Origin: a virus
IMG/VR virus record: IMGVR_UViG_3300044730_000222
Coordinates: 37,846-101,845 of that record
Length of the DNA stretch: 64,000 nucleotides
Strand: one strand, 5' to 3'
The position numbers and the translations under genes were made by a program. Positions 9,265 through 13,722 of the stretch are shown piece by piece; positions within the stretch are counted from its first letter, which is position 1, and every line of letters starts with the position of its first letter. Below the pieces are notes generated by a model. The model saw only the letters and a program-made list of their open reading frames with translations. It was not told the origin of the DNA and did not search any database.

Positions 9265-10088
9265 TATTTTTTAAATGGATTAGGATCTAAAAATGATCCG
9301 CTCCAAAGACCTTTCGTTGTTTCACCTTCTTGAGACTTGTATGTTCCTCCACGACGTTTATATTCTTGCACTACCCATCCATTAGCAACTGCTGAAGGAT
9401 AAACGTCAAACTTATCTTTTGCTTCTTGTACAATTCGTGCATAAAGTCTTGGATTTGAGGGAGTGCTTCCACCTCTACGTGGCTGAATCATTTCTCCATA
9501 GTTAGGCTTTTTAGCCTTATCAAGTTCCTCATTAATCATTCTGCGTCTTGCCTCTTCAATCTCATCATCTTCGTCTTCCATTTCTCTTTCAGAATTTGCA
9601 TCTTGGTATGGGGCATTTGCAAGTGTTTTTTTATCAATATTAGATTTCATTGTTTCTTCTGCATCCATTTCGTGCTCCTTAATATCTATTTTTTGTGCAT
9701 CTGCATACATCATGCCAATACTATATGCAGTTGGTTCCCATTCGCCATCTTCTTCTTCATAAATTCTTACAGACATAGCAGGATTTTCTGGTGGCATAGA
9801 AACAAGAGCATATTCAGATCCAGGAGTTCCAAGAGTTCCACCTTCAGTCATGATATGTTCAATCATTCCATGAATAAGACCTTCTGTTGTAGCACCCATA
9901 ACAAAATCACCCTCTTTAAGAGTGTGCATAGTTTTGCCTATATTGCCCTCAGATTGGTTTATAGCGTAGATCTGTGCTGCTGCCTGTGTACGAGTATCAT
10001 GACAGCCCATTACCTCATTGGTACCCACCTTTAAAGCAGGGTAGCCAGAACAACCGTATGAACCCTTAGCACCTACACGATATGGCAT
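9264..10088 (-). CDS. Multidomain protein (DUF5872-like C-terminal part), candidate internal head protein
   Basis: YPSAVANGWVVQEYKRRGGTY domain; C-terminal KGLWSGSFL like the scaffold; leaderless promoter. Confidence 0.5.
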   Translation of the reverse strand: MPYRVGAKGSYGCSGYPALKVGTNEVMGCHDTRTQAAAQIYAINQSEGNIGKTMHTLKEGDFVMGATTEGLIHGMIEHIMTEGGTLGTPGSEYALVSMPPENPAMSVRIYEEEDGEWEPTAYSIGMMYADAQKIDIKEHEMDAEETMKSNIDKKTLANAPYQDANSEREMEDEDDEIEEARRRMINEELDKAKKPNYGEMIQPRRGGSTPSNPRLYARIVQEAKDKFDVYPSAVANGWVVQEYKRRGGTYKSQEGETTKGLWSGSFLDPNPFKK

Positions 10089-12131: not shown

Positions 12132-12305
12132 TTATTTCCTATTATCCGTTCTATAAAAACCGCTGCCATTAAAAATTGCTGGAGTAGCATTCCAAACCCT
12201 CTGCATTAATTGAGAGCAACATGTCGGCCCTCTATCTTCTCCAAATTCTTTGCGAAACTCTATTACGGTTCCACATAAAATACATTTATAGTCATAAACT
12301 GGCAT
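12132..12305 (-). CDS. FmdB-family zinc-ribbon protein (57 aa, not in ORF track)
   Basis: MPVYDYKCILCG...PTCC...MQRVW...AIFNGSGFYRTD. Confidence 0.85.
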   Translation of the reverse strand: MPVYDYKCILCGTVIEFRKEFGEDRGPTCCSQLMQRVWNATPAIFNGSGFYRTDNRK

Positions 12306-12311
12306 ATATCA

Positions 12312-12340
12312 AGTATATCCTATGCGGTTCTCATTGTCAA
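12312..12340 (-). promoter_or_regulatory. Sigma70-type promoter giving a leaderless FmdB mRNA
   Basis: TTGACA-17 nt-TATACT, 6 nt before ATG. Confidence 0.75.
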
Positions 12341-12595
12341 TCTAGTATATGTGCGTATTCTGTGGCAATTGGCACATACCACCTCACACTTTTTAATCTC
12401 TTTCATAATTGCCTTCCAAGAAAATCCATCGTGAATCATTCTAGAGACATTGTATTTTTTGTCTCTTATGTGATCAAAATCTAATACTATGTGATTTTTT
12501 TCTCCGCAGTCTACGCATCCACTTGCTATCTTTATTTCAGCAAGTTTCTTTTTATACTGCTGTTTATTATAGTGTGCTAGTTCTTTTTCAGTCAT
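12320..12595 (-). CDS. Small HNH endonuclease-like protein
   Basis: CVDCG...LDFDH...KCEVVCANCHRIRT; own TGCTATAAT promoter at 12605-12613. Confidence 0.75.
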   Translation of the reverse strand: MTEKELAHYNKQQYKKKLAEIKIASGCVDCGEKNHIVLDFDHIRDKKYNVSRMIHDGFSWKAIMKEIKKCEVVCANCHRIRTYTRLTMRTA

Positions 12596-12624
12596 AGCAA
12601 TTACATTATAGCAAAGATTATTTG

Positions 12625-12704
12625 AGCCCCGCATAGGAATTCAAGCACGAAGGCCGAATTTAAGGAAAAGGTAACTAGTCCATCCCAAGGCCTATGCGGG
12701 GACT
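12625..12704 (-). ncRNA. Candidate structured non-coding RNA (~80 nt) of unknown family
   Basis: Perfect 11-bp terminal stem CCCCGCATAGG/CCTATGCGGGG enclosing two possible hairpins; TATAAT at 12708-12713 places the TSS at the stem 5' end. Confidence 0.55.
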
Positions 12705-12718
12705 TCTATTATACTCTT

Positions 12719-13150
12719 TTACTTTTTAGCAACTTTAATAGCAATTTCCTTTGGCTTTTTTTCCTCTGGAACAATGCGATCAATGTCAATGTGAAGCATT
12801 CCATCTTTCATCTCTGCTCCAGTTACTTCCATATATTCACCAAGAGCAAATGTGCGGGTAAACTTGCGTGTTGCAATACCCTTATGAATTGCTTCTCCTT
12901 CAGTTTCTGTAGTGATTTCTCCCTTAACCACAAGAGTTCCATCTTCAACAGTTACTTTTACATCATCTTTTGTGAAGCCAGCAACCGCTACAGACAACTT
13001 AAAGGTATCTTCATCTACCTTAATTAAATCATAAGGTGGATAAGATTGACGTGTTGCGGTATTGTGTACATGATTAAAGCGGTTCAATTCACGATTGAAA
13101 CCAATAAAAAAAGGATCTTTAAAAAGATCCAGGGTATACGAACTTACCAT
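12719..13150 (-). CDS. hsp20: Small heat-shock protein Hsp20 (IbpA-like)
   Basis: SYPPYDL, AVAGF, HKGIATRKFTRTF, DGMLHI, C-terminal IAI; AGGAG RBS before ATG 13150. Confidence 0.93.
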   Translation of the reverse strand: MVSSYTLDLFKDPFFIGFNRELNRFNHVHNTATRQSYPPYDLIKVDEDTFKLSVAVAGFTKDDVKVTVEDGTLVVKGEITTETEGEAIHKGIATRKFTRTFALGEYMEVTGAEMKDGMLHIDIDRIVPEEKKPKEIAIKVAKK

Positions 13151-13208: not shown

Positions 13209-13574
13209 TTATAGCATATCCTTAGCCAAATACGCAATAGCCCTATTAAGTCTATCTATGCTATCTTGAAATACTCCAAGACCTCTATTACAATTATGGC
13301 ATAAATGTCCTCTAAAACTATCTTTGATATGGTCATGATCTACTACCCAAACACTAGCATTTCCACCAGTACCTTTTAATTCTTCTTCATTTTTTAAACA
13401 AATAGGACATACATATCCTTCTGGTGGATAACCATGTAATTTTTTAAGAATATCTCTTTCTTTAGATAATTTATTTGCACAAGACTTACATTCAGGTCTT
13501 AAATATTTACCACCTGAAGATGGAGAAAATTGAGAATCATCTAAACTTGTTTTACATTTACTGCAAGTCTTCAC
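13209..13574 (-). CDS. Endonuclease VII-family HNH nuclease
   Basis: CSKC..CKSC zinc finger, CPIC, VVDHDH, RGHLCHNCNRGLG. Confidence 0.88.
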   Translation of the reverse strand: MKTCSKCKTSLDDSQFSPSSGGKYLRPECKSCANKLSKERDILKKLHGYPPEGYVCPICLKNEEELKGTGGNASVWVVDHDHIKDSFRGHLCHNCNRGLGVFQDSIDRLNRAIAYLAKDML

Positions 13575-13575
13575 G

Positions 13576-13647
13576 AGCCTCCTATAGGATTTGAACCTAT
13601 GACAACCCGCTTACAAGGCGGGTACTCTACCCCTGAGTTAAGGAGGC
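13576..13647 (-). tRNA. tRNA-Thr(TGT), CCA not encoded
   Basis: GCCTCCT acceptor stem, anticodon arm CCCGC-CTTGTAA-GCGGG, T-arm GGTTCAAATCC. Confidence 0.92.
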
Positions 13648-13651
13648 AAAG

Positions 13652-13722
13652 AGCGGATAGCGAGAATTGAACTCGCACATTAACCTTGGCAAGGTTACGA
13701 ACTACCACTATGCAATATCCGC
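13652..13722 (-). tRNA. tRNA-Gly(GCC), CCA not encoded
   Basis: GCGGATA/TATCCGC acceptor, TAACC-TTGCCAA-GGTTA, T-arm GCGAGTTCAATTCTCGC; one D-stem mismatch. Confidence 0.88.

Follow-up and report, generated by a model that had tools for sequence, protein, structure and literature searches.

RNAC and RNAD of bacteriophage T4 are processed from tRNA precursors and are longer than the RNA that is the subject of this study. They are encoded in the tRNA region of T4 and are small RNAs still without an assigned function (PMC9697503). The element described here resembles them as a phage small RNA that lies among tRNA genes together with a homing endonuclease gene, which in T4 is segB (PMC9697503, PMC2330249). 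The location that characterizes these RNAs, within or beside a phage tRNA cluster, is also that of the element, but the element differs from them in that it has a -10 box of its own and that its two ends are joined in a stem. Compared by location and description, RNAC and RNAD are judged to be the closest known kind of RNA. The SegB protein of T4 recognizes the DNA of the tRNA T-psi-C motif (11 bp) and spreads itself and neighboring tRNA genes (PMC2330249). The present locus is similar in that a small free-standing nuclease gene adjoins a conserved stable-RNA gene and is co-inherited with it (PMC2330249), but SegB is a GIY-YIG enzyme, whereas the nuclease here is an HNH protein and the RNA beside it is not a tRNA. 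On a larger scale, Fremin et al. (2023) have reported 8,495 unnamed structured-RNA candidates from IMG/VR, including tRNA-like ones and terminators (PMC10690425). These candidates come from the same data source as the element and rest on the same kind of evidence, covariation; the element may be among them, and the paper mentions neither HNH nor hsp20 (PMC10690425).

Layout of the locus

The window, which is the whole stretch of 64,000 nucleotides that was analyzed, comes from an IMG/VR virus record of 101,845 bp that is judged to be 94% complete. The element lies on the minus strand, on which the gene order is tRNA-Gly, tRNA-Thr, an endonuclease VII-like gene, hsp20, the element, and an HNH gene. 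The features of the locus are as follows.

13575..13722, minus strand: tRNA-Thr(UGU) and tRNA-Gly(GCC) genes, about 0.9 kb upstream of the element (ARAGORN and Rfam)
12719..13138, minus strand: hsp20 gene, the upstream neighbor of the element (Pfam HSP20, E = 1e-20; PHROG 432)
12721-12719, minus strand: stop codon of hsp20 (read from the sequence)
12708..12713, minus strand: -10 box TATAAT of the element, followed by six bases and then the closing stem (read from the sequence)
12625..12703, minus strand: the element, a structured three-way-junction RNA of 79 nt as judged from fold, covariation, and covariance model
12691..12701, minus strand: 5' arm of the closing stem P1, CCCCGCATAGG (exact inverted repeat and compensatory changes)
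12627..12637, minus strand: 3' arm of P1, the perfect complement of the 5' arm (exact inverted repeat and compensatory changes)
12663..12687, minus strand: hairpin P2, with a stem of up to 8 bp, which carries the conserved loop (RNAfold and alignment A3)
12671..12679, minus strand: loop L2, 9 nt, ACUAGUUAC in the window (alignment)
12638..12660, minus strand: hairpin P3, variable in sequence (hairpin prediction)
12614..12626, minus strand: A/U-rich tail 3' of P1 (tail position table)
12605..12613, minus strand: extended -10 box TGCTATAAT of the HNH gene, including TATAAT (read from the sequence)
12320..12595, minus strand: HNH endonuclease gene, 91 amino acids, with its ATG at 12595 (PHROG matches and motif)

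An earlier, sequence-only reading of this DNA had noted tRNA genes within 1 kb of the structured region, and the tRNA-Thr and tRNA-Gly genes, which are on the same strand, are indeed found there. A separate observation concerns the gene that follows these tRNAs. The endonuclease VII-like ORF (13209-13574, minus strand) starts with GTG right after the last base of tRNA-Thr (region 13572-13647), and the one Shine-Dalgarno-like sequence available to it, AGGAGG, is part of that tRNA's 3' acceptor strand. Therefore, processing of the tRNA and translation of the nuclease should be mutually exclusive.

Fold and covariation of the element

The sequence-only reading had proposed a structured RNA of ~80 nt on the minus strand, made up of a perfect 11-bp stem and two hairpins. 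This structure is present: RNAfold applied to the window's sequence gives the closing stem and both hairpins, and 100 homologues agree with it. The fold energy of the single sequence is marginally better than that of shuffles (z = -1.97) and is unconvincing when taken alone, but the comparative data lift the element above chance. In 100 distinct homologues, pairing in the closing stem amounts to 99.9%, and 9 of its 11 pairs show compensatory changes, in which both sides have changed; examples are the replacement of A-U by G-C and of C-G by U-A, each in 22 sequences. The covariation score is 0.311, as compared with 0.183 for shuffles, none of 500 of which reaches 0.311, and with 0.05-0.13 for slid registers. 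The collection of homologues and the covariation check that had been suggested at the outset thus come out in favor of the fold. Among the same 100 distinct sequences, the closing stem contains 31 G.U cells as against 1 non-pair. Since G.U pairs would be A-C mismatches on the opposite strand, it follows that the folded molecule is the sense-strand RNA.

Relatives of the element have a length of 75-88 nt, with a G+C-rich closing stem of 11-13 bp; in the window's element, 53 nt separate the two arms of P1. The stem of P2 has 5-8 bp, and the hairpin is predicted by RNAfold in most of the 51 A1 variants. P2 includes one clearly compensatory pair (26-42 of alignment A3, which is AU in 89 sequences and GC in 8), and its innermost G-C pair is invariant. 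P3 is predicted, with a stem of 3-9 bp, in each of the 120 distinct elements, but the stems differ, and the loops in the relatives fall into two classes, a 6-nt YNUNGU loop and a GCAA tetraloop. In a fixed-register alignment P3 is 66% paired and aligns poorly, and because of this poor fit the support for P3 is rated as moderate. A covariance model built for the element (R1), with which the window scores 80.6 bits, finds a single copy in the 101,845-bp genome and one copy in each related locus. On these comparative grounds, the element is real and its structure is under strong selection.

Distribution and genomic setting

Relatives were gathered from IMG/VR with an exact-stem pattern, with protein searches for hsp20 and for HNH, and with a looser pattern. 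A metagenome collection was also searched by pattern; for this search and for the looser IMG/VR pattern, the matches are those listed. The relatives come from well over 200 viral and metagenome contigs and comprise at least 120 distinct sequences. All contigs that carry the element are viral or environmental, and it is abundant in lakes; its hosts are freshwater phages, probably actinobacterial. A strict pattern has no match in 185,579 prokaryote species genomes, and a cellular origin was rejected on this ground. When the 1-kb region was compared by blastn with 50,697 phage records, no match was obtained, and a search with R1 near the homologous HNH genes of the cultured phages Tribute, ArcherS7, and TomSawyer found no element.

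The element always lies on the same strand as, and directly upstream of, a gene, and in the hsp20 lineage this gene is nearly always that for HNH. Loci selected by the HNH protein contain the element in 80 of 80 cases (in one it is cut by the locus end), and the viral loci selected by the element have HNH directly downstream in 200 of 204 cases among the matches listed. Three of the four exceptions have a glutathione-peroxidase (Gpx)-like gene between element and HNH (as in locus L204), and the fourth is in a different phage backbone, which carries a WhiB-like gene (L178). The commonest left neighbor of the element is hsp20. Among 80 loci selected by hsp20, 17 contain both the element and HNH, 1 is cut off inside the element, and 62 contain neither, so that hsp20 loci lacking HNH also lack the element. 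In the metagenome sample, 23 of 103 evaluable elements among the matches listed are without HNH and have other, unrelated genes downstream, among them the gene for a 440-aa protein, one whose product begins with MKICIVANNPN, and a Dps-like gene. The setting between hsp20 and HNH that was described in the sequence-only reading is therefore correct for the window, but the metagenome loci indicate that the element is not tied to this pair of genes. Three elements sit 24-30 nt after tRNA genes (tRNA-Arg, tRNA-Asn, and tRNA-Asp), and in the 104 loci with a tRNA gene the median distance between it and the element is 1 kb. The verdict suggested by these comparisons is that the element is a mobile small-RNA gene of the phage tRNA/nuclease neighborhood, and not an accessory of hsp20 or of HNH.

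The neighboring HNH gene

The HNH protein matches PHROG 2255 and PHROG 3106, both HNH endonucleases, with E = 3e-22 and 8e-22, and it has no PHROG matches other than to HNH endonucleases. The translation contains the motif CVDC...DFDH...YN...CANCH, with two CxxC pairs and the DH...N...H residues. The closest relatives in cultured phages (42-57% identity) are from phages of Streptomyces, Microbacterium, Gordonia, and Mycobacterium. In the three that were inspected, from Streptomyces and Mycobacterium phages, the gene lies in every case inside a tRNA array; the arrangements are tRNA-Pro-HNH-tRNA-Trp-tRNA-Tyr, tRNA-Phe-HNH-HNH-tRNA-Gly, and HNH-tRNA-Gly-tRNA-Gln. By analogy, the HNH gene is probably a free-standing homing endonuclease. 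Because the pattern is that of homing endonucleases beside stable-RNA genes, HNH is read as the passenger and driver of the RNA gene and not as its target. An RNA that is specific to HNH, such as a guide, an antitoxin, or a regulator, was considered and rejected, since 23 of the 103 metagenome elements among the matches listed precede other genes, and since a more distant HNH of the family, in L178, is without the element. A functional tie between HNH and the element could nevertheless exist within the hsp20 lineage, given the tight linkage there.

Some further arrangements around HNH genes should be mentioned. In L178 (8144-8663, minus strand), an HNH gene of the family, which encodes 85 amino acids, is immediately followed by a phage tmRNA gene (tag AKQNQFALAA), and this contig, which encodes WhiB, carries the element 1.4 kb from the tmRNA/HNH pair. 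The Gpx-like gene of L204 (5942-6697), which encodes 251 amino acids and is found between element and HNH in a few phages, occupies the promoter slot that is used elsewhere by HNH. In the window, a near-consensus promoter, TTGACA-17-TATACT (12312-12340, minus strand), lies inside the 3' end of the HNH gene and ends 6 nt before the ATG of a gene for a 57-aa CxxC zinc-ribbon protein (12132-12305). The stem sequence recurs a third time, with two mismatches, at the stop codon of HNH (12319-12329). This copy was discounted as a chance match; it is within chance expectation, is not kept in the close relative L096, and lies in the spacer of the promoter just described.

Promoters, tail, and leaderless starts

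In nearly all lineages, a -10 hexamer (TATAAT, TACAAT, TAAAAT, or TAGAAT, often with TGn) is located 5-8 nt before the stem, and this spacing is kept after hsp20, after a gene for a 178-aa protein, after a pseudoknot-type leader, and after tRNAs. The exception is a group of five variants (L146 type), in which the -10 box is ~45 nt upstream and another small hairpin lies between it and the element. The TATAAT at 12713-12708, which the sequence-only reading had taken to place the start of transcription at the 5' end of the stem, thus belongs to a box that is retained at its spacing in unrelated contexts. The predicted transcription start of the element is the foot of the closing stem, and the proposed independent transcription of an RNA of ~80 nt is supported by these sequence features.

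The HNH gene has TGCTATAAT 9 nt before its ATG, without a Shine-Dalgarno sequence, and its mRNA is predicted to be leaderless. Genes downstream of the element usually have a TATAAT 6-10 nt before the ATG and no Shine-Dalgarno sequence, an arrangement that is kept across the HNH loci. In L413-L415, the gene for the 440-aa protein retains its promoter (TAGAAT-N7-ATG) in the absence of the element, which argues that the downstream promoter belongs to the downstream gene and that the element and the -10 box before it form a module apart from it. The earlier claim that the next gene has its own promoter agrees with this and with the second TATAAT at 12613-12605. In the whole genome, at least 20 ORFs of at least 50 amino acids start 6-10 nt after a TGnTATAAT-like box without a Shine-Dalgarno sequence; examples of such leaderless-type starts in the window are at 10088, 11401, 12305, 12595, 17411, and 57932. 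In this phage, leaderless mRNAs therefore seem to be the norm, promoter activity and leaderless translation both being predictions, and wide use of leaderless mRNAs fits an actinobacterial host.

A possible alternative to an RNA gene is that the element is an elaborate intrinsic terminator or insulator, which would stop transcripts initiated in or before hsp20 or at the upstream -10 box, so that the next, leaderless gene is made only from its own promoter. The location of the element, with a stop codon right before it and a promoter right after it, is as expected for this, and its G+C-rich stem is followed by a partly U-rich tail, for which 175 distinct tails give the consensus C-U-U-(U/A)-A-A-W-W-U-U-U. 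Homing endonuclease genes of T-even phages are shielded in such a way according to Gibb and Edgell (2007), as cited in PMC2330249, and many of the predicted phage RNAs are terminators (PMC10690425). However, the family tail resembles a terminator weakly, the window's own tail is U-poor, the "loop" of the G+C-rich stem is a 53-nt junction with two hairpins, and a terminator scan of the window reported no terminator at the element. Neither an invariant 9-nt loop nor a covarying second hairpin is needed for termination, a promoter 5-8 nt ahead would yield just the 80-nt RNA, and sites that lack the element are without a terminator after hsp20. In L296 and L359, a gene led by a Shine-Dalgarno sequence directly follows the element with no second -10 box, so that read-through is needed for its expression and the element cannot terminate efficiently in those lineages. 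A terminator is, in our view, an unlikely explanation of the element.

These two lineages also bear on the earlier claim that the element is neither a simple untranslated region nor a terminator. The claim agrees with the presence of the element's own -10 box, of the downstream promoter, and of the invariant loop, but it does not extend to L296 and L359, where read-through into the next gene must occur and where the element RNA would be, at least in part, a 5' leader. A more general proposal is that the element is a cis-acting 5' leader of the downstream gene, functioning as a 5' stabilizer, as a protein-binding operator, or as a put-like RNA that modifies the polymerase. The put RNAs of phage HK022 are promoter-proximal two-hairpin elements, which can be counted in favor of such a role, as can the location of the element on the same strand directly upstream of a gene, the predicted start at the foot of the element, and the lack of a second promoter in L296 and L359. 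On the other hand, the downstream genes are mutually unrelated, and most of them are preceded, 6-10 nt before the ATG, by a -10 box of their own, which in relatives is present without the element. Also, the closing stem is too long and too perfect for switching, and there is one copy per genome rather than one per operon. A leader function as the general explanation is accordingly regarded as distinctly unlikely.

The leaders that follow hsp20 hold several different structured modules (also in L026, L088, and L092). One is a recurring motif resembling an H-type pseudoknot, in which a covarying stem of 3-4 bp (GAC/GUC, CAC/GUG, or AGUC/GACU) encloses the loop CUGAGCAU and is followed by an A-rich linker and then by ACUGCUCA, which pairs and covaries with the loop (UGGACA/UGUCCA). 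It is found just after the hsp20 stop codon in L030, L033, and many other hsp20 loci and, outside the window, on the plus strand of the window's genome at 22820, 23675, 24588, 25779, and 30322. The motif is intergenic and has no match to an Rfam family; in some places it precedes a Shine-Dalgarno sequence, and in some a U run comes after it. Another module is a conserved small hairpin, GUCGGGGGAGACAGCGAC, which follows the post-hsp20 -10 box in L054, L063, L146, L160, and L161; in the L146 type this hairpin precedes the element.

Comparison with known RNA families

The sequence-only reading could match the element to no known RNA, and the searches of RNA families gave the same result. With Rfam 15 (4227 models), two tRNAs are the only matches at gathering level in the window, and the element is blank at E <= 10. 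The same search on six divergent variants gave one chance match, to PyrG_leader (E = 0.41, minus strand of L349), which lies beside the element and is not aligned with it. As judged by these searches, the element belongs to no described family. HEARO RNAs are ~300 nt in length and are represented in Rfam, and IscB is a protein of 400-500 amino acids with RuvC and HNH domains. The element is similar to HEARO in being a structured RNA immediately 5' of an HNH-domain gene but differs in that it also occurs without any HNH. A relationship to HEARO or to the omega RNA of IscB was rejected because an RNA of 79 nt and an HNH protein of 91 amino acids have the wrong sizes and there is no Rfam match. 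A Y RNA was likewise rejected, since the 101,845-bp genome has no match to TROVE (Ro) and no match to an Rfam Y RNA.

The element has also been considered as a degenerate or non-canonical tRNA, or a tRNA mimic, of the phage tRNA array. It has the size of a tRNA and is found in or near tRNA clusters, in three cases 24-30 nt after a tRNA, and the family of the HNH neighbor lives in tRNA arrays. Its three-helix layout can be compared with that of a tRNA lacking the D arm, in which the 12-bp stem would represent the acceptor stem stacked on the T stem. However, ARAGORN recognizes none of 69 variants at standard or lowered thresholds (ps90 and ps80) and 2 of 69 in mitochondrial mode, and the Rfam tRNA model (RF00005) has no match on the element at E <= 10. 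Furthermore, neither strand of the 11-13-bp stem is interrupted, a T-loop motif, a discriminator, and CCA are all absent, and the 9-nt loop has U where a tRNA would have the purine of position 37. A tRNA origin or mimicry is therefore considered improbable. The weakest proposal, that the conserved sequence acts as DNA in the form of a recognition or insertion site for HNH with an incidental RNA fold, might draw on the tight HNH linkage in one lineage and on the recognition of an 11-bp tRNA-gene motif by SegB (PMC2330249), but it is highly improbable because compensatory changes keep the pairing while the sequence changes, wobbles fit one strand, 23 of 103 elements among the matches listed have no HNH nearby, and sites of the hsp20 lineage that lack HNH also lack the element.

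Loop L2 and its likeness to the 790 loop of 16S rRNA

For an RNA gene, the conserved loop of the element, L2, is of particular concern. Its sequence is AUUAGUUAC in most relatives and ACUAGUUAC in the window, which has C at the second loop position, one that varies in the family. The last seven bases of L2 are invariant and are followed by an invariant first closing C, and UAGUUACC is invariant across the 51 distinct sequences of a set of loci gathered through the HNH protein alone. Because the loop played no part in the choice of these loci, the invariance of L2 is not an artefact of pattern selection.

In most members of the family, L2 together with its two closing pairs is GGAUUAGUUACC, as compared with GGAUUAGAUACC in helix 24 (the 790 loop) of 16S rRNA. 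Over 16S positions 785-796, most of the family is identical at 11 of 12 positions and the window at 10 of 12. Both structures are hairpin loops of 9 nt with two closing G-C pairs, and the two L2 positions that vary in the family correspond to 16S positions 787 and 788. The element differs in having U where the rRNA has the conserved A792, and the remainder of the element does not align to 16S rRNA; local alignments of the whole element to 16S are no better than those of shuffles (the mean score is 21.5, as compared with 18.0 for all shuffles and 23.5 when the best shuffle of each sequence is averaged). In the 16S, 23S, and 5S rRNAs of Escherichia coli, the 790 loop is the sole 12-mer within 2 mismatches, where about 0.01 chance matches are expected by our own estimate, before allowing for the fact that the likeness was noticed afterwards. 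It should be recognized that the likeness is short and was noticed after the fact, and it is treated here as a lead and not as a result. A wider likeness to 16S rRNA (UAGAGAU of helix 23, the GCAA loop of helix 27, and UGAAUUG near 915) was rejected as over-reading, since these matches are found in subsets of the family only or are common motifs.

The 790 loop forms part of the intersubunit bridge B2b; the C-terminal domain of initiation factor IF3 docks on this loop and blocks the bridge, and a change at 16S position 791 lowers the affinity for IF3 tenfold (PMC3130014). Translation of leaderless mRNAs is inhibited at raised levels of IF3 (PMC9031893). One might speculate that the element RNA is a trans-acting mimic of the 790 loop that titrates IF3 or another ligand of this loop, a proposal that is tentative and that we consider unlikely as it stands. 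If such a decoy were abundant, it would shift initiation toward the 70S-dependent leaderless mRNAs of the phage and away from host mRNAs. Mimicry of rRNA in cis is familiar from the leaders of ribosomal-protein mRNAs, and we know of no phage RNA that mimics the 790 loop in trans.

Other ligands of L2 can be envisaged; it could make a kissing contact with a conserved RNA, or it could bind a phage or host protein. The complement of the loop, GGTAACTA, shows no enrichment across the phage genome, where the two strands together have 5 sites, one of them the antisense of the element itself, versus ~3.6 expected. A search for wobble-tolerant complementarity of the loop to E. coli rRNA gave about a dozen matches and is uninformative.

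Proposed function and significance

The best explanation of the locus, to which we would assign a probability of about 0.55, is that the element is a small, stable, structured RNA gene without a known family, with an adjoining homing endonuclease. According to this proposal, a -10-type promoter would start transcription at the foot of the G+C-rich stem of 11-13 bp, which joins the ends of the RNA and from which two hairpins would branch, P2 with the invariant loop and the variable P3. It would be a single-copy gene in a plastic region of the phage genome that holds tRNA genes and several small nuclease genes. HNH would be neither a regulatory target nor a protein partner of the RNA; rather, it would be a homing endonuclease that drags the RNA gene along, for which there is a parallel in T4 and in cultured actinophages, where such enzymes reside in tRNA clusters. 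The combination of a long stem that locks the ends, a strong promoter of its own, a single copy, and an invariant exposed loop suggests a stable RNA that acts in trans, and the invariant loop may be its working surface. As its target we would favor the translation apparatus, since the loop is a near copy of the 790 loop and these phages depend on leaderless mRNAs.

Since T4, phage tRNA clusters have been known to contain small stable RNAs with no assigned function, and the element is a clean and well-supported example, for which the comparative evidence is unusually strong and in which the single invariant loop is an obvious experimental handle. If the likeness to the 790 loop is functional, it would link the translation RNAs of phages, leaderless mRNAs, and the inhibition of leaderless mRNAs by IF3, and if the decoy proposal is true, it would represent a new form of viral takeover of translation, through an RNA decoy of the ribosome. 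Even without a connection to the 790 loop, the locus indicates that the homing endonucleases of actinophage tRNA arrays also associate with an RNA gene that is not a tRNA, and this association would be a practical route to further RNA genes of this type.
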